NCBI GenBank assembly: GCA_900128395.1
Contig: LT649243.1
Location: forward strand, 1-64,000
Direction: 5' to 3'
From: Stramenopiles sp. TOSAG23-2
Lineage: Eukaryota
Length of the DNA: 64,000 nucleotides
This document shows positions 21,440-53,600 of the stretch, piece by piece; position 1 is the stretch's first letter, and the number at the start of each line of letters is the position of its first letter. Made by a program: the position numbers and the translations under genes. The notes beneath the pieces were generated by a model. That model ran no database searches. It had not been told where the DNA came from and was given only the letters and a program-made list of their open reading frames with translations.

Positions 21440-22441
21440 ATGTCATCAGCTTTATTATTACTTGGTTCATTTTCCACCATTATATTATTAAACAAACGTC
21501 GTAAGCAGCATTTACACAAAAAAAAGAAACAAATCAATAATAATGTAAAAAAGAAGAAAAACCAACCAGAAGAATATCCTGTTTATTCTATTGGAACGGT
21601 GCGGTCGTGTTTTCGGGAATGTCGTGGCACGCCACGTCAAGGCTTATATGCACCATCTACACGTGGTAAAATTATATTGAAAAAACAAATCCCATCTAGC
21701 TCATTGGATGGATTAGAAAATTTTTCTCATGCTTGGATATTATTTATATTTCATATGAATACCAACTTTCATTTAACGAAACGTGCACATACGGATAAAA
21801 GTTATAACTTCAGACCAAAAATCAAACCACCAAAATTAAAAGGGAAGTCAATTGGTTTATTTGCAACACGAACTCCTCATCGACCAAATGCAGTTGGGAT
21901 TACATTAGCAAAAATTGAATCTATATCATTGAAAGAACGTGCTGTGTATATTTCCGCATTGGATTTGGCAGATGGAACTCCTGTTGTAGATATTAAACCA
22001 TATGTAACACCATATGACAGTGTTCCATCGGCTATTACACCATCATGGTGTGGAGAGGACATTAATTTACAACGTGCAAATGTTAAAATAGCGGAGGAAC
22101 AAAAGAAAATTATATACCAAGCAGCCTCGGAAGGCAAATTGAGGCATTATAATAATGGAGATGATATTTGTAAAACAATAATTGAATTATTGTCTACAGA
22201 TATACGGCCATTAACTTCATATACTACAAATAGAAAGAAAACGAAGAAAAAAACATGCCGATTTAGATTCGACATGTTGCGAGTTGGTTTTATGGTTGTG
22301 ACAGAAGAGAGTAACGATGAAAGTAATAACCCATCTACTACAAATTGTATTATTGTAAATGAAATTATTGTTGAAACAGAAAGAGATGAACGTGATATGT
22401 TGAAAGGAAAGAAACAAAGGTATCCGACAACAAACAAGTAA
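21440..22441 (+). CDS. TRMO: tRNA (t6A37) N6-methyltransferase TrmO/TsaA
   Basis: IGTVRSCF, GTPRQG, LDGLENFSHAWILFIFH, GLFATRTPHRPNAVG, LDLADGTPVVDIKPY. Confidence 0.92.
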   Translation: MSSALLLLGSFSTIILLNKRRKQHLHKKKKQINNNVKKKKNQPEEYPVYSIGTVRSCFRECRGTPRQGLYAPSTRGKIILKKQIPSSSLDGLENFSHAWILFIFHMNTNFHLTKRAHTDKSYNFRPKIKPPKLKGKSIGLFATRTPHRPNAVGITLAKIESISLKERAVYISALDLADGTPVVDIKPYVTPYDSVPSAITPSWCGEDINLQRANVKIAEEQKKIIYQAASEGKLRHYNNGDDICKTIIELLSTDIRPLTSYTTNRKKTKKKTCRFRFDMLRVGFMVVTEESNDESNNPSTTNCIIVNEIIVETERDERDMLKGKKQRYPTTNK

Positions 22442-22754: not shown

Positions 22755-25320
22755 TTATAACTTTGCATTAATAATTTGATTCTTATCATTGTTATCCGCG
22801 TCAAAATCTATTTGTTGATTTACACGCAACAAAAACTTAAGATCATTTATTTCATCAGTTGTTAAACCTACTTCCTCTGATAAATAAGTTTCTACATTTC
22901 CATATCTCTTCAAAAATTTTACTATTGTTGCTTCCATGATCTCAGGCACAGACAAAAACAATGACTTAATAGTTTCTATTTTGAAATCATTTACTTTTGC
23001 ACGTCCTTCTGGCGGAGCATGGCGTTTGAACTCTTCAATAAATTCTTCATCTGTATCCCATTGTGTAACACGTAAGCTGGTAAATTCATTGGATTCGCCA
23101 TAATCATCGATAATTTCAAAATCTTTGCTACCAGCTATCATACCAAATAACATAGCAATGAAACCAGTTCGGTCTTTCCCAGTTGCACAATGATAAACAA
23201 TTGGCCATTTACTTTCATCTAGGACGTACTCTTTAAAAAATCGTTTTATATATTTGCTGCCGATTCGTAACATTTCCATGTAAACGTAAGATTGTCCATC
23301 AATAGGACCCATGTTATCAACAGATGGCATAAATAAATTTGGCATTAAAGACTCAGGCGTCAAGCCATCCATTACTGGGATCAATACTTTTTCAACATGA
23401 TCAGGCAGATGTTCAGGGCGTTCAACATCATCATTTGCTGAACGTAGATCAATAATTGTTTTAACTTTATACTTATTCACTAAAGTTTCAATCCCTTTTT
23501 TCGTAGCCCAGTTGACACTCTCGCTGCGAAATATAATACCAGGTCGAAAATTACTTAAGTTTTTTGCCATGTCTCTAAAATTATGTAAACCATCAATTTC
23601 TTCTCGATTGAAATTCCGGACAGATAAGATTTGTCTTAATTGTCCAACTTCTGTGGTTGTAAAGCCAAGAAGATCGATTAAATAATTATCAACTGTCTTA
23701 AATGTCTCTTTGAACAATCGTATTGTTGCAGCCATCGATTCACGATTTGCCAAAAAAGAATATCGTATAGTAGATACACTAAAAGATTTCATTCCACTCT
23801 TTGATCCTGCCGGTGCATGCTTTGTTACCCTAGCCATGATGTCTTCGTCAGACATAGTTGGTGGAAACTCTTTTTCTGTAAATGCTTTTGATTCATGAAA
23901 ATCAGCAACAATATCTTCCTCATATGAGTTTGTTAATAACCCCGCTAACATAGATATAATACCAGTTCTGTCTTTTCCAGTTGCCTGTGAGCGTATCGTA
24001 TCAATGAGTGATGATGTGTTAGAAAGGATGTTGTCCTTTTTATTTTTAGTTTTATAGGCGAATATAGAATTTACTTACACAATGGAAAACAATAGGTAAA
24101 TTTTCAGGTTTTAAAATCACTTTGAAAAAATCACGTATTGCCTCTTTTCCTACCTTTAAAATATGCAGATACATTCTACCAGTACCTTCATATTCACCAT
24201 ATTGTTCTACTAACGGTAAAAAATTATTAGGCATTTTTGTTTCTGGAGTTTTTTGATCAAGCATTGGCATTACCATACGTTTCACAGCTGATGATGGAAG
24301 TGGATCTCTAGGATCTGTCTCTGCTCTTAAATCAATAACAGTTTTAATATTATATTCTTCAATCAATTGTTGCTTTCCTAAATCACTTGCCCAATCAAAA
24401 TTTTCACTTCGATATAATAAATCAGGTTTAATGTTTGAAAAATAAAATGATAAGTCGCGAAAATTTTCTAATCCATCTATCCTATGAATTCGCCTATTAG
24501 GTCTGATACATAAGATATGGCGTAATTGCTGTACTTCCATTCCGGTTAAACCAACATGGTTGATTAAATAATTATCAATGTTACCATATTCTTCTCGAAA
24601 AAGTCGAATCGTTTCTGCCATAATTTCATAGGTTGCTTCAAATGAACTTTTAATTACAGGCATAAGTTCTAATGGTGGTTTTCTACCAGCTGGTGCATGT
24701 TTGAAAAATTCTTTTTGAAACTCTTCCAATGTCATATCTACAGGAAAGTCTTTTTCCATATATTTTTGTGTTTCAAAATAATCATTACATATTTCTTCAT
24801 CGCGAGCACTTGTCAATAACCCAAATATCATTGCAACCATACCGGTTCTGTCCTTTCCTGTGGCGCAGTGAAATGCCAATGGAAACATTGTTCTAACACT
24901 ATTATCAAGGATTGCTTTGAAGAAAGTCTTCATTCCATTTATACCTTGTTTACATAGCCATATATACATTTTCCCTTGACCTAACGTAGGCCCAAAATCT
25001 CGAAGAAATGCTGGAAAATTTGTATTCATTTGGGATGCAGGAGTTAACTCATCCATGATTATAGCCATTATTTTTCGCACTCCTGTAGGTGCATCGTACA
25101 TTTCATCACTCAAAGCACGTAAATCTACTATCGTGCGCATGTTGTAATTTTCAACAAACTCCTTTCTTCCTTTGTCACTTGCAAATAGATAATTTTCACT
25201 CCTATACATTAATCCAGGCTTAATGTTCGAAAAGAACAAGCTTAAATCCCTGAAATTATACATACCATCTGGTTGTACTGGGGTATTATTATTATTATTA
25301 GTTGGGAGGGTCGTCGTCAT
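22755..25320 (-). CDS. Two-exon protein (823 aa) with three tandem IphP/MptpB-like (Y_phosphatase3-type) phosphatase domains; exons 25320-24079 and 23984-22755
   Basis: Three NFRD...YRSE/FRSE...DLR...HCATGKDRTG units. A GTAAGT...CAG intron at 24078-23985 joins the two ORF-track ORFs in frame and restores FHC|ATGKDRTG. Confidence 0.88.
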
Positions 25321-41906: not shown

Positions 41907-44900
41907 TTAGAATGTGTATATCACCATCCCTCCTTCCACTTGTTGATACCCGTTTGATCCATCTAGTTTATATTGTATTATAGCATTTAATTGTGATTTC
42001 ATATTATCACTAAGTTGATTATTATATAGGTACAATGTCCTTAATGTATTGTTTGTTTTTAATCCATCAATAATACTTTGTATTCCACCATCATCAGTAA
42101 TATTATTATTATCTAGGTCCAATCTCGTTAATGTATTGTTTGATTTTAACAATTCACCAATAGCTAATGCATCCTCATCCATGAGTTTCTTTCCACTCAA
42201 ATCCAAATTTGTTTTCCCATCAAATTCTTTTTCCCATTTAATATATGCAGCACTTTTGTTTATGTCTACTGCGTTGGTGTTATCATCTTCTTGGTCATTT
42301 GTATCATTTAACTCAACATTAATATCTTCTAAAACATTAAATAGTGATTGCTTCGGTTGACCTAACTTTTGCTCTATGTTTTCTGGGATATTATTTACAT
42401 TAATAAAAGCTTGTTTTACCTTCTTGACTTTGGCGGGTGCTTTCGCTTCCATTGGCTTCTCTACGTTTGAAGGCATTTTATCATCTACTATCGTCTCTTC
42501 ACTAGGTTTGCTTTGCACTTTGAGCTGCTTTGTGGATGTATTGTTGGTATCTAAATTCTTACGATCATTCTTCTTATTTTCAATTTTCGTCATCAATTTA
42601 CTTTGCTTATCATACACTACTTTATTACTTTTTTTTGAATCTTCCATTTGGCTTTTATCCAGTTCTGTATCTGTCCATATACTATGATAAAGTCCATATT
42701 GTACAGGCTTATCAACTATACCAACAAATAATTTTGCTCGTGTAATAGCACGATATACAGATGCTTTTTTCTTATCTAGTATCGACTCTTCGTCATCATC
42801 TTTTATTGTTTCATCAAAACCAACAACAATTGCAGCATCGTATTCTAAACCATCTTGATTTGAAATAGTATCAACAACTATTTGTACTGATTTATGTCTT
42901 AATTGTGGAAATGTACCAAACATTGTTTCTGCATTGAAAAATTCAAAATCCATTTCAAGACCTTTCTCGTCAATTTTATCTCGCAATTTCATCGTAAACT
43001 CATCTACGGTTAATGAGGGATTATCATCTGGTAATATGATCACAACACGACCACGGCTTAATAGGAACCATCCAAGATCTTTCTCGTCTTTCATTGCAAA
43101 AACAGGTTTAACATGCTCTAAAGCATTAATAGTTCTCATAATATATTGTGTTATTGTATCATTATTATTATCATCATCCTTGTTGGAATCGACAATTAAA
43201 AATGGTTCAATGGGACTTCCAAATTCCTTATTTTTACATGATGGTGTTTCTACATATTTTCTATATAAATGAGAGAACAAGGTAATTGCCTGTGTTGAAC
43301 GTACAACATCACGAAGTTCAATATTGTAAACTTCTGCTTGGCGTTTGTGTATTCTTTTATCACGATTCATTGCCTCGTTTATTCTATCATTAATATCTTC
43401 ATTTGCATTGGCACCTTGATTATTGTCTGAAAGCACTACACGATGAGTCGCTTTCTTAAAATATTCATATATATTTTCCCATATATGCATATCATCATTT
43501 TCATGAATAATATGATGCGCTTCATCAATTACGGCTAAATCATAATTTTGAACTGTCTCATCCTTATCAATTTCAACAAATTTCAAATACGCATTACCTT
43601 GCTCATTTAGTTGAAGTATAGCTTTGTGTGGCTTTTCATTAGTCTTTCTTGTACAAAAATGGATACGATTTAAAATCGATTCTGGATCATGCCGTACTGC
43701 GTCATTATTATTATCATTCTCTTCTCCCTTGGTCTCGTCATCACCACGTTTAACTTTCCTACTTAACATACGTATTAATATCCATCTTGCAAAAAAATAA
43801 GCAAATCCATTTTGTGTGCATGCAAAAAGTATGTTTGCATTTGGATTTTCTATTAACATTTTACATATAAAATATAAACCTAAAAATGTTTTACCCGTAC
43901 CAGCAAATCCTTTTATGTGAACACATCCAATGTTATGTTTTTCGTTTGCATTGTATTTCTCGTATTCATTGTATTTCTCTTCTTGTTCAATGGTTAATTC
44001 ATCTTGTGCTAATAATTTGTTTTTGCAAATTTCCTGAAGCATACTTAGCATTTTAAATGATACGTTTTCAACTGATATGTTCTCAACCAATACTTCTTTC
44101 AATTTCATTTCTTGTTTAATGCGATCTATCTCCTTTCCATCATTTTTGTTTAAAGCAGCAACAACTTTTGCAAAGTTTTCTGGTTTTTCAATAAAGTTGA
44201 AAAACAATTTTAAAAAAGGTGTATGATTATTTGATGCTTGCAGAAGGAGCAATTCTTTTATATGTTCAGTGTATATTTTTTTAATTTTAACATCGTTTTC
44301 TTTAAAAATGGGATCTCCACCTTGACCATCTTCCGATAAATTAAATATTGGATCAGAAACGTTGATATTCTTAAATTCTGTCGTTATATTTTTTACCTTC
44401 AATGCTACAGCAGTTTTTCCACATTCAAAAGCATCTTTGGGCAATTTACCGCCTTTAAAAAGCTCATAATAAAAATCTTCGCTTATAATAGGGGCAGCAC
44501 CAGAACAAACTTTTTTCTCAAAACCGTATGAATATAAGCCACCTTTTTCAATAAAATGTTGCACAACATTACTATCGTCACTGGCTGTTTCACACGCACT
44601 CATCGTAAATAATGTAACACCATGTTGAATTAATGTTTCGATAAACTTATCATATTCAATTCGCTCTATAGTATATGGTTTGGTTGTTATATCAAGAAAG
44701 AAAAGGCCTAAAATTTTATTTAGGATTTCAGCGTTTCCATGACCAATAAAGTGACAATATTGATATTTTTTTGATCGTATTTGTTTGTAGAACTTAAGCA
44801 CAGAACCTTTAAATATATCTGCACCTGTAATTTTTTGAATTTCCTCTGCTTCCTTTTTACTTTCTTCAAAATCAACAGCTAAATAAATTATACCTTTTGC

Positions 44901-46277
44901 ATTGCGATACAAAGTTGTTAGAATATGATTACCATGCTGATTTTGCTCTAACATTTCTATTTTTTCAAGTATTTCTTTAAATTTTAGATTCATAAAATTA
45001 TTAAGTTTTGAATCTTTCGATTTAACATAGTTGATGAACATCTTTAATCTTAATACCGCGTTTGTTACACGTTCAGATATTTTTGTTTGTTCCTTAGAAT
45101 TTTTCTTTAGACTTGCATCCATACAGTCCACATACTGTTGTATCCCTTTTGTATCTTTCGTAATTTTAATTTGCTTTTGCAATAATTCTTGGATACAAGC
45201 AAATATCAGTGCATCTTTAGCATTAGTATCGACAAGTAATCGTTTTCCTTCTTTTACATCGCCCTTTTCATCATATAGAGAGTAATTTTTTTCATCCACT
45301 TTGTCTTTATAACATATAGTTCCATCATCTTCTTCATCATTACTTTTTACCAATGTTATTTCAGATCCATCTTCCAATCTCACTAATTGAATCTTTTCGT
45401 TCTCTGGTAAATCCGGGTGTTGAAATATTTTCCATAATTCTTCTGCTATAAAACCAGCAGTCAAAATACCTGAATTTTTCCATTTGTAAATATATAGTCT
45501 TAAACGATCAAGTTTATATAATATAGATTTTTTTTCTAATTCACCCTTTATTATTTTAAATGCGGAATGGGATAGTACAGTTAATTGATCAGTAATTACT
45601 GTAATAAATTTCGCATGATTTGCATGGACAAAATTTGCTTCAATTTTGTGTTTTGATGAATTATTAGTTACTTCATTATTATTATCATCGTAAAGAGGTT
45701 GGACTATATTCGGTGGCCTTGCTCTACCATTTTGTAAACCTACTTGTAAATTACTATTTTCTAACAATTTATTTCGTACATCTTTACGTTTCCCATCTGC
45801 TTGTCTTTTGGGAATATACACTCGTTTTGTATATATTACAGAAAAAACTAACAGACTAGGGTCAATACGTTGTTGGTGGGAAAGTTGCTGTTTGTTATTA
45901 TTATTGTTGTTATCATTATCGCTACTTGCTGTTAAAGGTTTGACGATTGTAAAATCAACTTTTTTTGTATTGCCAGCATTATCTTTGCACATAATAAAAT
46001 GTGGCTCGAACATTCTTTTTTGACTTGAATTATGAGGTATTTTATTACCTTTTTTGGGATCAAGTGGATCTCCCTCCAATGTAATCCCATCTTTACTCCA
46101 GAAGTATTCTTTATTTCCAAGAGGATTCAACAAATGAACCTCATGTTGAAGCGCTAAAACTTGAAATGCACGACGATTTTTATCAATTAAATATGAGGTA
46201 TATGGTACATCTTCTTTCCCCTTTTTAACTCGTATTTTAATTTGGTGGTTTCCTTGTTGATTTGTTCTAGTTGCCAT
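41907..46277 (-). CDS. CHAT (caspase-like) protease - Schlafen-type SF1 helicase/NTPase - LRR fusion protein
   Basis: CHAT dyad HFIGHG (His near 44740) and MSACET (Cys near 44593), plus SEDFYYELF. Helicase motifs GFAGTGKT, VIDEAHH, LSDNNQ, LRDVVRST, DTISNQDGLEY and YRAITRAK. C-terminal LRRs LTRLDLDNNNITDDG and LRTLYLYNNQLSD. Confidence 0.82.
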   Translation of the reverse strand: MATRTNQQGNHQIKIRVKKGKEDVPYTSYLIDKNRRAFQVLALQHEVHLLNPLGNKEYFWSKDGITLEGDPLDPKKGNKIPHNSSQKRMFEPHFIMCKDNAGNTKKVDFTIVKPLTASSDNDNNNNNNKQQLSHQQRIDPSLLVFSVIYTKRVYIPKRQADGKRKDVRNKLLENSNLQVGLQNGRARPPNIVQPLYDDNNNEVTNNSSKHKIEANFVHANHAKFITVITDQLTVLSHSAFKIIKGELEKKSILYKLDRLRLYIYKWKNSGILTAGFIAEELWKIFQHPDLPENEKIQLVRLEDGSEITLVKSNDEEDDGTICYKDKVDEKNYSLYDEKGDVKEGKRLLVDTNAKDALIFACIQELLQKQIKITKDTKGIQQYVDCMDASLKKNSKEQTKISERVTNAVLRLKMFINYVKSKDSKLNNFMNLKFKEILEKIEMLEQNQHGNHILTTLYRNAKGIIYLAVDFEESKKEAEEIQKITGADIFKGSVLKFYKQIRSKKYQYCHFIGHGNAEILNKILGLFFLDITTKPYTIERIEYDKFIETLIQHGVTLFTMSACETASDDSNVVQHFIEKGGLYSYGFEKKVCSGAAPIISEDFYYELFKGGKLPKDAFECGKTAVALKVKNITTEFKNINVSDPIFNLSEDGQGGDPIFKENDVKIKKIYTEHIKELLLLQASNNHTPFLKLFFNFIEKPENFAKVVAALNKNDGKEIDRIKQEMKLKEVLVENISVENVSFKMLSMLQEICKNKLLAQDELTIEQEEKYNEYEKYNANEKHNIGCVHIKGFAGTGKTFLGLYFICKMLIENPNANILFACTQNGFAYFFARWILIRMLSRKVKRGDDETKGEENDNNNDAVRHDPESILNRIHFCTRKTNEKPHKAILQLNEQGNAYLKFVEIDKDETVQNYDLAVIDEAHHIIHENDDMHIWENIYEYFKKATHRVVLSDNNQGANANEDINDRINEAMNRDKRIHKRQAEVYNIELRDVVRSTQAITLFSHLYRKYVETPSCKNKEFGSPIEPFLIVDSNKDDDNNNDTITQYIMRTINALEHVKPVFAMKDEKDLGWFLLSRGRVVIILPDDNPSLTVDEFTMKLRDKIDEKGLEMDFEFFNAETMFGTFPQLRHKSVQIVVDTISNQDGLEYDAAIVVGFDETIKDDDEESILDKKKASVYRAITRAKLFVGIVDKPVQYGLYHSIWTDTELDKSQMEDSKKSNKVVYDKQSKLMTKIENKKNDRKNLDTNNTSTKQLKVQSKPSEETIVDDKMPSNVEKPMEAKAPAKVKKVKQAFINVNNIPENIEQKLGQPKQSLFNVLEDINVELNDTNDQEDDNTNAVDINKSAAYIKWEKEFDGKTNLDLSGKKLMDEDALAIGELLKSNNTLTRLDLDNNNITDDGGIQSIIDGLKTNNTLRTLYLYNNQLSDNMKSQLNAIIQYKLDGSNGYQQVEGGMVIYTF

Positions 46278-47435
46278 TACGTATGATTTTTTTTCCCGTT
46301 TTATTGTTTTTCCTAGATTTCTACGTGTGTGAGTGTGTATATATATATATACTGCTTGTTTCTAAGTAAAATAAATTATGATTTTGTTTATACTGTTTAT
46401 AATATACTGATGTGTGTAATACTATAACTACAACTATAGTCGTCGTATATCGATACAAAGATATATTTACTTTTTAGTCAAACGAAATCAATATCTCCAC
46501 GCGTATATAAATATACTAATAATACTACATGCATCATCATGAAAACCACTTTAAAGCTTTATATTAATGATACACAATTACATTTTTATAGCTATAATTA
46601 AACCGCACCGTGACTTTTTATTCAGGTTCTGTTACGTATGGATAGAAAGACCTCACTATCCTTCATCCTTCACGCTCTATAATATACCATGGTGGTATAC
46701 TGTAGTAAGCAATGCTATTTTGTTCTTACAGTACGTACGTACTCTGGTATCTCGTAACTCGAAACCAGCTTCGCCTATCCCCTATCCCCCCCCTCTACAC
46801 CACTACTTTTTACTTCAGAATTTTCTTCCTCAAAATATCCGATAAAATGACCTCGCTAACAAATGAAAATGGGTATAAATTACCAAATAAATGACAGGAA
46901 AATAGCAGGTATATAAATTATATAGGATATTTTACAATCATTTCGTACTTTAGGTATAGGAAGTATGTAATTTTAAACCCTGTTTGCTAACCGGATCGGT
47001 GGGTACAATTTAAAGAATTAGTGTTAATTTCCACGAGCTACCTCGTTGTTTTGATTACCCTATTTTCTATCACGATTGATGGGTATCATTTAAGGAACAT
47101 GCATATAATATATTAATTTTAACAAAGGTTGATGTCATTAAATACAATTATAATATTACAACGATGAAAATACTATATAAAAACAATGCACTTAAACAAA
47201 TGCACATACTAAAATACAGAAATGGCAAATATATATACACAAACAGATATATAAAGTTAACAGAAGATATTAAAAGAAATAAATATATTAATTAAAAGCG
47301 GATATCCTAAACTAGATCATCCAAAACTAAGAAAACAAAGAAGGAAGAACAACAAAGTTGTTGTTTGTTATATTATTATAAGAAGACGAGAAAACAAAAA
47401 GCAAAAAAAAGCAAAAATTAAAAAACAAAAACAAA

Positions 47436-49901
47436 ATGAACAAAACAATAACCAAAAGCAAAAACAATAACCAAAAGCAAAATGATGTGAATCGTGCATC
47501 AGCTCCATATAGACTACGTGAAGATGTTGATATAGTGGCACAATCCAGGAAATTCTGGGGAAAATTCTTATGTGATAAGTATGAACTCGTTCGGTTTGTA
47601 ACAATTGGTGCAATTGCAAAATCAAAATTACAAACCGTACTTGGTGGTAGTTTCCAATGCGAGGGCGTTGAGTCAAAAAAATTTGATATCAATGTATCAA
47701 AAAAAGGGTACTCCCCTCAAAAAAAAAAGCACGAACAAAAGGCTGTTATGCCAGAGCTTTCGTGCAAACGTTGGGGCGCAGATGTACTCCAAGAAGTGGA
47801 AAAATATATAAAAGAAAATGCAGGAGCTGAAAAAGCTAAAGCGGAAGCAGAAAAAGCTAAAGCGGATAAGAAAAAAGAAGCAGACGAATCAAATGCAAAG
47901 AAAGCTTCACGGGAGGTGTATGATGAAAAAATGACAGAGTATAGGTGGAATCGCAAGAGTTTAAGAATTTTCGTGAATGTATTTAAAAATTTAGGTAGAG
48001 AAAAATCTTCAAAGTCCATACGCAAGCGTATCAGACATACATTCATTTCGCTGATGGAAGCATCAGGTTTAGATGAACTATTTACACATTATTTTGAAGA
48101 GATTACACCTGTAAAGTCAAAAGAAAAGAAGGTGCTAAAGTCTTTTCAAAAAAAGAAGGTGATAAAGATGGTAAAAAAAGAAATAAATATATATATAAAG
48201 CAAATTACCCTTCAAAAATTGTTCCCAAAAAAGGCACTTTGGGTCAATATGCAAAAGCAAGTAGTAACTACTACAACACATGCCCACTTGCAAACAGCAT
48301 TGTACGGGCCAGTATCTGCTGGTTTTCGTGTATTACGTCTTCGCGGTGGCATGCAAATCTTCGTCAAAACGTTAAATGGGACAACCATTACGGTTGATGT
48401 AGACCCATCTGATACGGTGGAAGCCTTAAAAGCTGCCATCCAAGATAGGCAAGGTGTACCGCCAAATAAACAACGTTTGATTTTTGGAGGTAAACAATTA
48501 GACAATGATCGCCCATTGTCTTATTACAACGTCCAGAAAGAATCGACGTTGCATTTAGTATTACGTCTTCGAGGTGGTGTGAAAAGATGTTGTGTCTGCA
48601 CTGATACCTTTGATGACGAAAGCATCATTGTAGAATGTAGTAACGGGCACGCATTTTGTGGCGGTTGTCGAAGCCAATGGTGGGGAGTAACGGGGATACT
48701 CAATCCTCACGATGAAATTGACATAACTTCGATGTCTACAAAATGTTTACATCACAGCTGCAACAGTGGGCGTATTGCCTTAGTCGCTGATATAGAAGCG
48801 ACTGTAAAGCACACGGATGGGCAAGCCATTGCTAAAGTTCTTCGTCATTTGTATGAAACGTTTGTTAACGCAAGTGAAGCTTCTTCAGGCAAGCTAGACG
48901 ACGACAACAATGCCGCCTATGACACAATTCTATTAGCCTTGGATCATTTCAAGTGCCCAAATCCGAAATGTGACATGAGGCATGAATCAAATCCAGCGGC
49001 GTGTCGTGCAGAGGAATGTCTGAAATGCAAATGTAAGTTTTGCCATTTATGCGGTCACATTCAGCGAGAAGGAGAAGACATTCACAGGCATGTGCTATTG
49101 TGTTCTGATGGTGACATGCGTATTTCAGCTCAACACCCTAAATTCAAATTGAAACGTAGGAAGTGGGCTTTGGTAGAAATATATAATGACCTGCTTGGTT
49201 TCACACCCAGTGCTAGGGTGCATGCAGTTCGCAGGTTTCTAAACGATGACACGTTGTGGGTTTCACCGCCATGGAATTTAATGGATGTTGGTAAAGATAC
49301 ATACATTAAAATGTGTCGTGATGGCAAGTATAAGATGCATAATTTACAAACGTTTCAACGGGGGCCATTGGCGGAAACATCGATGCTGAATTCACTTGTA
49401 CAATCCTGCTCAAAGACAGTCGTTGAAGAAGTAGGCAAAGAATCCATTAAAAAAATGGCGACAGAGACTGTCAGAAAGACAGTGCAAGAAAACGTTTTAA
49501 AGTACGTGAAACGTCATGGCATTAGCAAATTGTTCCACAGTTCCCGAAAGGCAATTTGGGTCAATGTGCAAAAACACTTTGTAACCAGTACAACAAATGC
49601 TGGCTTGCAAGCAGGATTGCATGGGTTAGCTTCCGCTGGGGTTGGTGTAATTTTAGAAATCCCCAGAGGCATATACCAGTCTTATGATGACCACAAACGG
49701 CTGGCAAATGGTGAAATAGATGAGGAGAAACTTCAGGAGCTAAAGAGCATTAACTTTAAAGAAAGTGTAACCAATGTTGTTGGAACCAGTGTGGTAGCTG
49801 CTGCGGCCGTCACTTGTGGGGCTGGTGCTGTTGGCTTTTTTGTGGCCAACTTCACATATGGCGCAGTTTCCTCAATCTATTATGGTACACGTCGCCGTTA
49901 A
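47436..49901 (+). CDS. Ubiquitin-fusion polyprotein: N-terminal region ending in LRLRGG, divergent ubiquitin (48351-48578), RING plus Rcat-type zinc fingers, and Gly/Ala-rich hydrophobic tail
   Basis: [15 protein letters not shown]...[17 protein letters not shown]...[11 protein letters not shown]...CLHHSC, then CPNPKC...[19 protein letters not shown]...HRHVLLC. C-terminal [23 protein letters not shown]. True start codon is uncertain. Confidence 0.8.
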
Positions 49902-50081
49902 AACCGGGGGGAATTCAAAACCATCAAATTTTGGAAAACCTATGGACTGTTCGCAACACTCTCATCGAGTGTGTCGTGTGCTTCATACGCAATCGGTAGG
50001 CGTGTTTATTCATTCAATATATATATATATATATATAAATAATTTCCTATGTTTATACGTACCAGTATAATAAATGAGTAT

Positions 50082-50316
50082 TTAAATCATTTTTGATTTG
50101 AGATGTTAATTTCCGGGAGTAAAAGAAATTTATATATTATAATACATGAGTAAGAGAAAATTTTTATACGAAGTATATATTAAATCATTTTTGATTTGAG
50201 ATGTTAATTTCCGGGAGTAAAAGAAATTTATATATTATAATACATGAGTAAGAGAAAATTTTTATACGAAGTATATATTTTATAATAATACATTTGAGTA
50301 AGAGAAAATTTTTACG
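50082..50316. repeat. Tandem duplication, about 2.4 copies of a ~98-bp unit
   Basis: ttaaatcatttttgatttgagatgttaatttccgggagtaaaagaaattt...gagtaagagaaaattttt repeated, with a partial third copy. Confidence 0.88.
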
Positions 50317-50650
50317 ACTCGTATATATATAATACGTATATAATGATAATAGTAGAGAGGATTAAATCCATTTCTTAGAGATTGAGTATTGAGCAGTATC
50401 ATATTAATATATATTAGTATTCGTCGGAGATACGACGTACGTACGAAGTATAACGTAAAAAATTATTGCGTGTATAGTAATTTTAAGATTTAACCATATC
50501 ATTATTACCGTATTACGTAATATTAGACAATCTTTTTTTATTATTCGTACGGGTATGATAAATATCATACAAAATTTGTATATGTATCATACGAATTCGT
50601 ACTTAGTTCGTACAAAAAAACATTTTTTTTACGAGCCGTTTCGTTAAATT

Positions 50651-53600
50651 TTATTCCCGCAACCCCAAAAAACTAGACCAACTTGGTGGTAAAATTTCAC
50701 TCAATTTCATCGCATTTCTTCCTTTACCTTCTCCCTTGTTATCCTTTGCACCAACAGCACCATTATCATCACTCTCCTTCCTTTGCTTTACAACCGTCGG
50801 ATCTACTATTTCTTTTTCCTCTACAAAATTAAAACCCATTTTCTTACTCATATCATCACTTGCAATAGTAGTAGATGAAGGTGTAAATGCTTCGGAACGT
50901 ATTACGGAAGAAGAATTCATTGATTTCATTTCTCCATTGTTGTTATTATTATTCTCAATTTGCATTTCATCACTTTTTGTCTCCATCATCGTCTTCATCT
51001 TCGTTGTAGTAGTAGAAGAAGTAGATGATACATTTGGTGACACAAATTTCAACGGTTGATTCATATCTCGCTTCAAATCCATCATTGGCGATCTCATAGA
51101 ATTATTCATCATATCTGTACTTGCATTCATACTACTTTCAAACGTACTTGTTGTATCATCCATTGTTGAAGATGTTTCTAAAGATACATTACCATCCTCA
51201 TCTGCTACTGAAGAAATCGTTGGATCAATCGATATTTTAATTTCTTCTGTTTCTATTTCAGTAGTGGTGGTGGTTGTTGTTGTAGGTGAAACTACATTCA
51301 TACTAGTAGTAGTAGTAGTAGCAGTATTGCTAATTTCTACCTTCTTCTCATCCTTCTCTTCATCAACATCCATTTTACTATTACTATCCTCCCCATTCGT
51401 ATTTACTACCATCTCGCTATCTTTTTCATTATTACTATTATTATCATTCTCTTTCATTTCCTCTTTTTCTTCTTCTTCCTCCTCCTCCTCCTCCTCCTCC
51501 TCTTCCTCTTCCAAAGATGAAGTGAAAAAATTATCCGTCATAATCTTGCAAAAATCTTCTCTTAAAACATCCAATCGTTTTAACGCAACATCTTCTTGAG
51601 AACAATTAATAATTGTAATTGCTTCCCTATGAAAAATATTAACAATCGCTTCCTTTGTTGCACAAATGTTACATATTTTTTTCGCCAATACCGATAATCG
51701 CTTTGATGATTTTTCAATATTATCACCTTGATCTTCTTCTTTTGTAGCAGTAGTACTATCCGTAAAAGTTGTTGCTGTTTCTTCCGTTGCCACACTCGTC
51801 GTAGTTGTAGTATTTGCCGCATTCATTTCGTCGTTTCCTCCCACTACCACATCAACTTTCACATTATCCGTACTTGTCTTCCCGCTACTACTACTACCAT
51901 CATCATCACTCGTCGCAAATAAATCCTTTTGAACATTTAATGCTTTTTCCTTCATCGACGATATAAAATCATCAATTTGTACTTTCAAACCATCCTTTGA
52001 TATAGTTATTTTTTCTTTTTTTACACGATTACGATTACCTCTACGGCTTCTACCACTATTTTCATTTGTTTCCTCTTTATGTTTTTTAACATGTTCAAAA
52101 TCAATACCTTTTACCCTACGATTATCTAATATATATTTCACATCATAGGTTTCATTTTCTTCATCAACATTTACAATTTTAGCTAATCCACCATCATCGT
52201 TTAAACCAGGCCATTTACGTCTCATGCAATCTACTAAATCACCAACCTTAGGCATTCCTTCACCAGTAGCAGCAGCTTCTTCTGCTTCTTTTAAAAATTG
52301 TGCTTCTTCCGTAATACCACGTGGATCTACCATTTTTCGTTGATGTCTTAAATCATTCAATGTATCTAAAATATCATTTCGTGCATTTTGATGACATTTA
52401 GAAAATTTATCACGCCATAAATTTACCATGTCTAATGTAGTAAACATAGTAGTTTCTTCCATATAATAATTCATGTAATTCGTTGTTGTTGTAATAGTAC
52501 TTGTTGAATTGTCTTCTCTCTCTTCTTGCAAATTTTTCATTGTTGGATGTTTCTTCTTTTTGGTCATATCAAAAATACCTGGTATAATGAAAAATTTAGG
52601 TTCAATTACGGTCCATCCTTCATCACACATATCTAAATCCAATAAATCTTTCAAATAGAATTTTGGCATGACATATTTCTTCGGTGAATCTTCATCCTCA
52701 TCTTCATATTCACTTTCATATTCTTCTGATTCAGAACTACTTTCCTCTTCACTACTATCACTACTACTGCTACTGCCATCACTATCGTCGCCAACAACAC
52801 TACTACTAATACTACCACCACCAACAACAACATTACTATCCTGTGTACTACTATTTGTAATACTAGATTGACTAAAACCATTCGTAATACCAGCTGCTAA
52901 TAACGCTGCTTGTTCTTCTTTTGCTTTTAATTTTTCAAGTTTTCTTAATCTACGTCTTTCCCTATCTCTACGTCTTCTTTCTTCCAATTTTCTTGCTTGT
53001 AAACGTAATTTTTCCATTTGCTCTTTGTAATTTGTCTCTTCATTATTTAATGTTTCTAATAAATAATCAAAAATACTTTTACGTACTGGTATATCACATG
53101 CTCTTCGTTTTAAACTACGTAAGAAAAAAATACGTTCTTTTAAATCGGTTTTACTTAAATATTCTTTTCGTTCAATTGCACCACACCATTGTTTACATTC
53201 AGCTTGTTTTTCTTTCAACCAACGTAAACTTTGTTCAATTCGTGGATTAATGGATATGTTAAAATAAAATGGTTGATCTAAAATATTTTTTTCCAACGCT
53301 ATCATATTCGTTACATTAATTTTTCCAGCCTCACCCATTGATAATTGACGTTGTAAATCTGCTACTTTACATTGCCAATCCCATGCCCATTTTTGTTGAA
53401 TTTTTTTCTTTTCCTTATGTTGTTGCAAACGTTGTTGTACTAATCGTGCACGTTCCTCTTGTTGTTTTAAATATGCTTGATTTCTAGCTTCCATTTCTTT
53501 AATTTTTGCAGGTGTTTTACCATTGTTTCCATTTTTACCATTGTTGTTGTTGTTGTTATTAAAGGTATTGTTGCTGTTGCCATTGCTGCTGCTGTTATTA

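Follow-up and report, generated by a model that had tools for sequence, protein, structure and literature searches.

Contig LT649243.1 of the Stramenopiles sp. TOSAG23-2 assembly (GCA_900128395.1) carries, within its positions 1 to 64,000 (the stretch analysed here, referred to as the window), an open reading frame (ORF) at 47436-49901 on the forward strand that runs uninterrupted for 821 codons plus a stop. The encoded product of 821 aa consists of an N-terminal part that leads through the heptapeptide VLRLRGG into ubiquitin, which is followed by a RING-like finger, an Rcat-like finger, and a hydrophobic tail. This polyprotein architecture, proposed in an earlier sequence-only reading, is borne out by the ORF itself, by Pfam, and by profile comparisons. 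The gene is composed of the following features:

47436-49901 (+): whole ORF, 821 codons plus stop; G+C fraction at third codon positions (GC3) 0.356
47799-48185 (+): conserved N module, aa 122-250, near-identical to the protein P0061; no known family
48228-48332 (+): truncated copy of an element of the gene's own C-terminal domain, aa 265-299; an internal repeat ending with the Val codon GTA
48330-48350 (+): first VLRLRGG, aa 299-305, interpreted as the seven-codon remainder of a ubiquitin unit once located before the present one
48351-48578 (+): divergent ubiquitin of 76 aa, aa 306-381, with an LRLRGG end (PF00240, expectation value (E) 1.3e-28)
48588-48761 (+): RING1-like finger, aa 385-442, from weak Pfam matches and the family profile
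48954-49103 (+): Rcat-like finger, similar to RING2 of RING-between-RING (RBR) ligases, aa 507-556, with the candidate catalytic Cys523, from family alignment and profile
49416-49775 (+): helical C-terminal domain, inside which lies the source copy of the internal repeat (49547-49649), from repeat comparison and structure model
49776-49877 (+): Gly/Ala-rich hydrophobic tail, aa ~781-814, a probable membrane anchor by Kyte-Doolittle hydropathy

The window is AT-rich and harbors long intron-free ORFs. A-rich sequence precedes ATG 47436, and the chance probability of the 298-codon open frame upstream of the first VLRLRGG is ~3e-11, as calculated from the base composition of the stretch. Both the GC3 and the overall GC (0.406) of the gene are the highest among the 20 long ORFs in the window, the GC3 of the remaining ones ranging from 0.138 to 0.301, which fits a recently assembled or acquired gene. 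Within the gene, GC3 is 0.29-0.33 in the N part vs 0.35-0.40 downstream. The neighboring genes are ordinary cellular genes. A transposon or viral insertion was considered and rejected because the gene is not flanked by terminal repeats, direct or inverted. The Pfam scan of the 821-aa protein returns no protease family, and the Rfam and tRNA scans of 46200-50700 found nothing. When the four protein parts are compared with the window (tblastn), they match the known internal repeat and nothing else; the ligase part, used as a query against a viral contig collection, yields pattern matches only and no relatives.

The ubiquitin domain (aa 306-381) covers positions 1-72 of the 72-position PF00240 profile with a score of 99 bits against a cutoff of 25.4, and it is identical to the canonical polyubiquitin unit at 55 of 76 residues (72%); the canonical sequence hardly varies among eukaryotes. 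Of the Lys positions, K6, K27, K48, and K63 persist but other residues stand at K11, K29, and K33; in the alignment, the hydrophobic-patch positions I44/L8/H68/V70 as well as the LRLRGG tail are retained. Judged by these residues, the unit is a divergent ubiquitin and not the housekeeping one. The ORF holds one complete unit plus seven codons, whereas polyubiquitin has at least two complete head-to-tail units in one ORF. At its C-terminal end, the GG is followed in frame by a non-Pro partner residue (G381-V382), which is the organization of a ubiquitin-fusion precursor.

The two stretches encoding VLRLRGG (48330-48350 and 48558-48578) are identical at 20 of 21 bases, and the corresponding 20-base pattern occurs twice in the 64-kb window compared with 0.01 occurrences expected from shuffles. 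The first of them contributes only the 7-residue tail, before which there is no ubiquitin fold. Its place is taken by the truncated helical element: 48230-48332 is a copy of 49547-49649 in the gene's own C-terminal domain with 77% identity over 103 nt, and within the protein, aa 224-300 match aa 661-739 with 41% identity (BLASTP, E 3e-13). The copies are in register, with identities of 0.69/0.83/0.74 at the three codon positions over 35 codons. Immediately past the Val codon GTA at 48330-48332, the identity to the C-terminal copy drops to 0.15; this GTA is at once the last codon of the C-terminal-domain copy and the first codon of the ubiquitin-tail match. As read from the DNA, the truncated copy and the tail of a ubiquitin unit thus meet at a 3-base microhomology.

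The joints of this mosaic can be followed in other samples. Two runs, X1 and X2, contain 98-99% of the sequence words of the window and are possible source runs, while contigs matching at 90% likeness are found in the DNA metagenomes X3 and X4 and in the metatranscriptomes X10 and X16 (polyA). The runs containing parts of the gene's stretch are labelled marine or seawater metagenomes, and X4 is a marine DNA metagenome from a study distinct from that of the probable source runs. A 151-nt X4 contig corresponds to 48232-48382 with 1 difference and spans the N part, VLRLRGG, and the start of ubiquitin; another (48354-48504) lies inside ubiquitin, and a third of 270 nt (48486-48755, 3 differences) spans ubiquitin, its GG, and the RING. 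Both junctions are therefore real outside the assembly of the window, and a misassembly at ~48325, which the sequence-only reading had named among the findings that would undo it, is contradicted by the independent X4 contig crossing that point. Among RNA contigs, one from X10 (48542-48824) crosses the ubiquitin-to-RING junction, and two from X16 (48740-48980 and 49508-49741) lie in the ligase part. The differences seen in other samples number 14, 6 synonymous and 8 non-synonymous, which is too small a number to decide selection.

Contigs of 258 nt from X3 (DNA) and X10 (RNA) run from 48366 to 48557 and then back to 48330, forming a ubiquitin-to-ubiquitin junction. Their length is accounted for by a single 228-nt unit together with the 30 nt over which the two contig ends overlap, and the X10 contig begins with 16 bases identical to 48542-48557, set directly before 48330. 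Since the bases shared at the joint (14) are fewer than those of the end overlap (30), reads with a genuine ubiquitin-ubiquitin junction exist, and the contigs are not a graph artifact of the window's structure. Units of the same variant ubiquitin thus stand head to tail in the X3 and X10 populations, and the codons at the junction between units are those of the window's first LRLRGG. The simplest reading of the sequences is that VLRLRGG plus ubiquitin in the window represents 1.09 units of a tandem array. Because of the 20/21 match, the end of the internal repeat at the shared GTA, and the head-to-tail junctions in two samples, the first LRLRGG is most likely a seven-codon remnant of a neighboring ubiquitin repeat and not a designed cleavage site.

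The N part has a single detectable relative, P0061, a metagenome protein of 360 aa encoded on a 1423-nt contig. Residues 122-250 are almost identical to it save for a 16-aa insertion in P0061, and the likeness ends abruptly after aa 250. Within this near-identical module, P0061 carries at aa 76-91 a 16-aa tandem duplication of a KSIRKRNR-type repeat. About 60 residues past the module, P0061 has a different, very divergent ubiquitin-like domain that ends in LRLSGG (Pfam ubiquitin E 4e-4, below the cutoff) and is followed by an acidic, Asn-rich extension. No LRLRGG precedes that domain, such that the first site of the window is conserved in 0 of 1 homologues. The combination of the N module with a GG-ended ubiquitin-like domain downstream in a single ORF nevertheless occurs twice, in the window and in P0061, and speaks for joint translation of the N part and ubiquitin. 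The comparison points to a family that may swap 3′ cassettes behind a conserved 5′ module, and X3 contigs matching 48119-48209, which turn into unlike sequence at 48174, 48189, and 48207, fit such a family. Pfam has no match for the module (aa 122-250), ESM Atlas has no usable match for the N part, and a search of metagenome contigs with the N part gives 341 pattern matches and no relatives.

Among 1.84 billion representatives, 9 are related to the ligase part (440 aa, aa 382-821) at E <= 1e-3, and the strongest of these matches has an E of 3.9e-19. None of the 9 carries ubiquitin; in the Pfam runs, made on 7 of them, there are 0 matches to the ubiquitin family. In relatives that have a RING, it starts ~10-120 residues from the N-terminus, and two relatives, P0053 and P0055, share the helical region and the Gly-rich hydrophobic end. 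The cluster of Cys and His residues at aa 385-442 has RING-like Pfam matches below the cutoff (Sina_RING 1.6e-3, zf-C3HC4 0.014), and with the family profile, matches are obtained to TRIM RING fingers (1.8e-4) and to the RING1 stretch of ARIH2 (independent E 0.092). Over its whole length, the profile of 10 sequences matches ARIH2 with an E of 5.7e-6, and the best stretch is the RING2/Rcat finger (ARIH2 292-337). The finger common to the family follows the pattern C-P-x3-C-x10-C-x-A-x2-C-x2-C-x4-C-x2-C-x10-H-x-H, in which C507, P508, C512, C523, A525, C528, C531, C536, C539, H550, and H552 are invariant across the 10 sequences. C523 aligns in the Cys column of the G-C-N-H-M motif of ARIH2, the Cys of which we take to be catalytic. 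By this alignment, aa 507-556 qualify as an Rcat (RING2)-like finger with C523 as the candidate catalytic residue. No Cys occurs between aa 443 and 506, and the middle in-between-RING (IBR, or BRcat) finger is absent; the protein has 1 IBR-like stretch, with Pfam IBR scores below the cutoff.

The helical C-terminal domain has a weak, sub-cutoff Pfam match to Nexin_C, and the tail (aa ~781-814) reaches a 19-residue Kyte-Doolittle mean of 2.09. A structure model of the ligase part has a mean predicted local distance difference test score (pLDDT) of 55.4, with 73-86 at the Rcat-like finger. Foldseek against the PDB gives 0 matches at E <= 0.001 for this model; its top rows are all RBR ligases, none of them significant. 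The wide VIA-align comparison matches only the C-terminal helices, with BAR-like and other helical bundles at Z <= 8.7, which is below the informative level for helical models. ESM Atlas values of 0.76-0.80, mostly for IBR/RBR clusters, serve as leads only. A search with the whole protein was swamped by ubiquitin, its 35 matches among 7999 scored candidates covering 9-15% of the query, and a search with region 382-821 against proteins of 451-1437 aa returned nothing among 8000 candidates. Metagenome contigs likewise gave pattern matches and no relatives for the ligase part. Taken together, the ligase part is probably an RBR-derived protein with RING1 and Rcat-like fingers but without the IBR, its hydrophobic tail being a probable membrane anchor. 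The sequence-only reading of this downstream module is supported by the sub-cutoff Pfam matches, the profile, and hydropathy.

From this anatomy, we infer that the locus, from a marine protist with AT-rich DNA, is a ubiquitin-fusion gene of mosaic build, that its first LRLRGG is a recombination relic, and that efficient cleavage occurs only after the second GG; the probability of this account is put at roughly 55%. The ancestor would have been a tandem (ubiquitin)n-ligase gene. An illegitimate but in-frame join at the shared GTA would have linked coding sequence from upstream to Val70 of the second-last unit, with the remainder of that upstream unit lost at the fusion. Four pieces would thereby have been joined: the N module, the truncated duplicate of a helical element from the C-terminal domain of the same gene, seven ubiquitin codons plus the complete ubiquitin, and the ligase-like protein.

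Any residue except Pro after the GG generally permits cleavage. A cut at Gly381/Val382 by cellular deubiquitinases is expected because the bond lies between folded ubiquitin and a Val residue, whereas the first site would be cut poorly because only the heptapeptide, and no ubiquitin body, lies before it. Effective hydrolysis by deubiquitinases is described as requiring both an exosite that contacts the ubiquitin surface and the engagement of LRGG in the active site, and tetrapeptide LRGG substrates as being very poorly hydrolyzed (PMC7477763, in the passages on these substrates). The predicted products would then be two rather than three: a 381-aa N-part-ubiquitin with a free GG end and a 440-aa RING1-Rcat-like protein anchored through its hydrophobic tail, while the first site would be cut slowly or never. 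The RING of several stand-alone relatives starts within the first ~10 residues, so a cut at G381/V382 would probably start the ligase part much as in these relatives. Val is a stabilizing residue at the N-terminus. The ubiquitin-activating enzyme E1 recognizes the ubiquitin body, and conjugation still takes place when ubiquitin bears an N-terminal tag. Given E1 body recognition and poor cutting at the first site, a 305-aa product is unlikely to be made efficiently or charged by E1, whereas the 381-aa piece could be.

The processing scheme of the sequence-only reading therefore stands in part. It had both LRLRGG sites used, releasing a possibly conjugatable GG-tailed protein, the variant ubiquitin in free form, and a ligase with Val at its N-terminus. 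The GG-Val junction at 381/382 is one that ubiquitin-processing enzymes should cut; the first LRLRGG does not hold up as an equivalent site, as no ubiquitin fold lies before it, P0061 lacks it, and its DNA looks like the leftover of a neighboring ubiquitin unit. The conjugatable non-ubiquitin product is unsupported for the same want of a preceding ubiquitin body. Three products are still conceivable insofar as the full VLRLRGG heptapeptide and a non-Pro residue occur at both sites, and slow cleavage at the first site would release some variant ubiquitin. Charging of a non-ubiquitin body by E1 is itself unlikely, and the region before the first site is predicted to be helical, albeit with low confidence. 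With the relic-like DNA and the missing site in the sole N-part homologue, processing into three products is judged very doubtful, although deubiquitinases do hydrolyze LRGG peptides, if inefficiently, according to PMC7477763.

Two further explanations concern what the gene is rather than how it is cut. The expressed gene could be the ubiquitin-ligase or tandem form only, starting at ATG 48351 or at an upstream unit, with the N part a separate or decaying sequence that is in frame by chance. The RNA contigs agree with this, as none reaches into the N part while ubiquitin, its junction with the RING, and the ligase part are all covered, and in X10 RNA the start of ubiquitin is preceded by another ubiquitin tail and not by the N part; the GC3 step within the gene points the same way. 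Absent contig cover is, however, no evidence of absence, and 298 codons stay open without a stop ahead of ubiquitin. In addition, P0061 is an independent case of this N module sharing an ORF with a ubiquitin-like domain, and the A-rich sequence sits before ATG 47436 at the head of the whole frame, so that this explanation appears unlikely. The other holds the gene to be a recent functionless chimera, a by-product of rearrangement that is still open but drifting. Its mosaic build with sharp breakpoints, the composition atypical for the window, the sparse ligase family (9 relatives), and the 6 synonymous against 8 non-synonymous differences, which do not indicate strong purifying selection, would all suit such an origin. 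On the other hand, all 821 codons are open, all 12 invariant family positions of the finger and the hydrophobic-patch and tail residues of ubiquitin are kept, another data set shows the same structure, and polyA RNA includes the ligase part; a functionless chimera is accordingly considered quite unlikely.

Several points weigh against the relic-and-single-cut account preferred here. The sparse metatranscriptome contigs of X10 and X16 include none over 47436-48329 or the N-part/ubiquitin junction; co-translation of the N part with ubiquitin is thus presumptive, and contigs this sparse leave room for one transcript across 48330. The tandem contigs of X3 and X10 could derive from a separate polyubiquitin gene of the same variant, or they could be later copy-number alleles that arose by unequal crossing-over between the two 21-base stretches. 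If the crossing-over came later, the relic would be the cause of the tandem array and not its remnant. P0061 hints, by its domain order, that the linkage of the N part to a ubiquitin-like domain is an older, selected architecture and not a recent accident. Viral papain-like proteases are described as cutting LRGG-type peptides without a ubiquitin body, making first-site cleavage possible. Finally, the structure models are poor (mean pLDDT 42.5 for N-part plus ubiquitin and ~55 for the ligase part) and useless for judging the exposure of the linker.

A more speculative extension of the two-product scheme is that the 381-aa N-module-ubiquitin acts as a giant conjugatable modifier, attached perhaps by the Rcat-like ligase of the same mRNA, with P0061 marking a cassette-swapping family of cargo and ubiquitin-like domain. 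This is held to be improbable. If true, the gene would deliver a cargo domain, a ubiquitin handle, and a dedicated membrane-anchored ligase at a fixed 1:1 ratio.

Just past the stop codon, at 49908-49978, short contigs from all four runs match at 90-95%. The summed depth of X3 reaches ~413 in the bin 49848-49938 and that of X4 12-22, compared with 3-6 for the gene. This stretch is single copy in the window, with no Rfam family or tRNA found in it; a dispersed repeat and a conserved 3′ element are both possible explanations. Farther into the 3′ intergenic region, 50082-50277 consists of two identical 98-nt copies in tandem, after which a third copy, degenerate and partial, extends to ~50333.

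On the other side of the gene, the reverse strand encodes a 1456-aa ORF (41907-46277) with a ResIII helicase-type match (E 8.6e-8), long Asn runs, a leucine-rich-repeat-looking C-terminus, and a weak endosialidase-chaperone match. Two adjacent paralogous genes of the tyrosine-phosphatase family (Y_phosphatase3) lie at 22755-23951 and 24052-25320, both on the reverse strand, with E values of 6e-51 and 2.5e-58, respectively. Of 8 sequences looked up exactly in a public collection, 1 is present letter for letter, a TrmO-like protein (21440-22441, forward strand) that belongs to a 60-member cluster of unnamed metagenome proteins; the 821-aa protein, its form starting at the ubiquitin Met, and 5 of 6 neighbors are all absent from that collection. 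The exact match within a 60-member cluster indicates that the organism or its close kin is common in sequenced environmental samples.

The architecture class, ubiquitin fused to a RING partner, is already known. Sibbald et al. 2019 describe ubiquitin fusions at N-terminal, C-terminal, and internal positions for the protists Bigelowiella natans and Guillardia theta, and the fusions listed there include "zinc ring finger" partners with 1 or 2 ubiquitin units as well as partial ubiquitin units of 1.5 and 1.75 (PMC6332867). An E3 ligase supplied with its own ubiquitin, which the sequence-only reading had put forward as a self-contained module, is therefore not new as a gene architecture, since ubiquitin-zinc-RING-finger fusions are on the list for these two protists (PMC6332867). 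The window gene shares with them an in-frame ubiquitin with an unrelated partner, the RING-like type of that partner, and a partial unit. It differs, as far as the descriptions in PMC6332867 allow a comparison, in that its ubiquitin is 72% identical to the canonical one, its partner has RING1- and Rcat-like fingers and a probable tail anchor, and its partial unit amounts to 7 codons that run into a shortened duplicate of C-terminal-domain sequence from the partner itself.

Polyubiquitin and UBA52/RPS27A-type precursors resemble the gene in that the LRLRGG end abuts the next polypeptide without a linker, with a deubiquitinase cut expected after the GG. In contrast to these precursors, the ubiquitin here is not N-terminal, comprises one complete unit, and has a ligase-like partner. 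That partner matches the RBR ligases (ARIH2, ARIH1, parkin) through its profile match to ARIH2 on the RING1 and RING2/Rcat stretches, but it lacks the middle IBR finger, ends its finger in His-x-His, and has a hydrophobic C-terminal tail. If expressed as read, the gene would couple a ubiquitin without K11, K29, and K33 to an IBR-less RING1-Rcat ligase with a membrane tail, which would make it a convenient natural setting for the question of whether dedicated ligases exist for variant ubiquitins. Where an LRLRGG adjoins a ubiquitin, a remnant of a repeat is also a likelier explanation than an engineered second cleavage site.

A likeness in mechanism comes from cytopathogenic pestiviruses. In bovine viral diarrhea virus (BVDV), ubiquitin insertions are described as products of non-homologous recombination, often with duplicated flanks, and the inserted ubiquitin serves as a built-in cleavage site for host enzymes within the polyprotein (PMC13517609). 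The internal ubiquitin of a long polypeptide, together with the partial ubiquitin and the duplicated flank, resembles the insertions described there. The BVDV case, however, is an RNA virus polyprotein with canonical host ubiquitin, whereas the window holds a cellular DNA gene with a divergent ubiquitin and, by the search of viral contigs, no viral features; the likeness is thus an analogy of mechanism suggested by comparison and not one of membership. What is new compared with these systems is the divergence of the ubiquitin, the tail-anchored RING1-Rcat partner without an IBR, the seven-codon relic with its duplicated partner piece, and an N module that recurs with a different ubiquitin-like domain. 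A cellular genome here preserves the breakpoints of a ubiquitin capture, namely microhomology, partial unit, and duplicated flank, that are otherwise best known from pestivirus recombinants.

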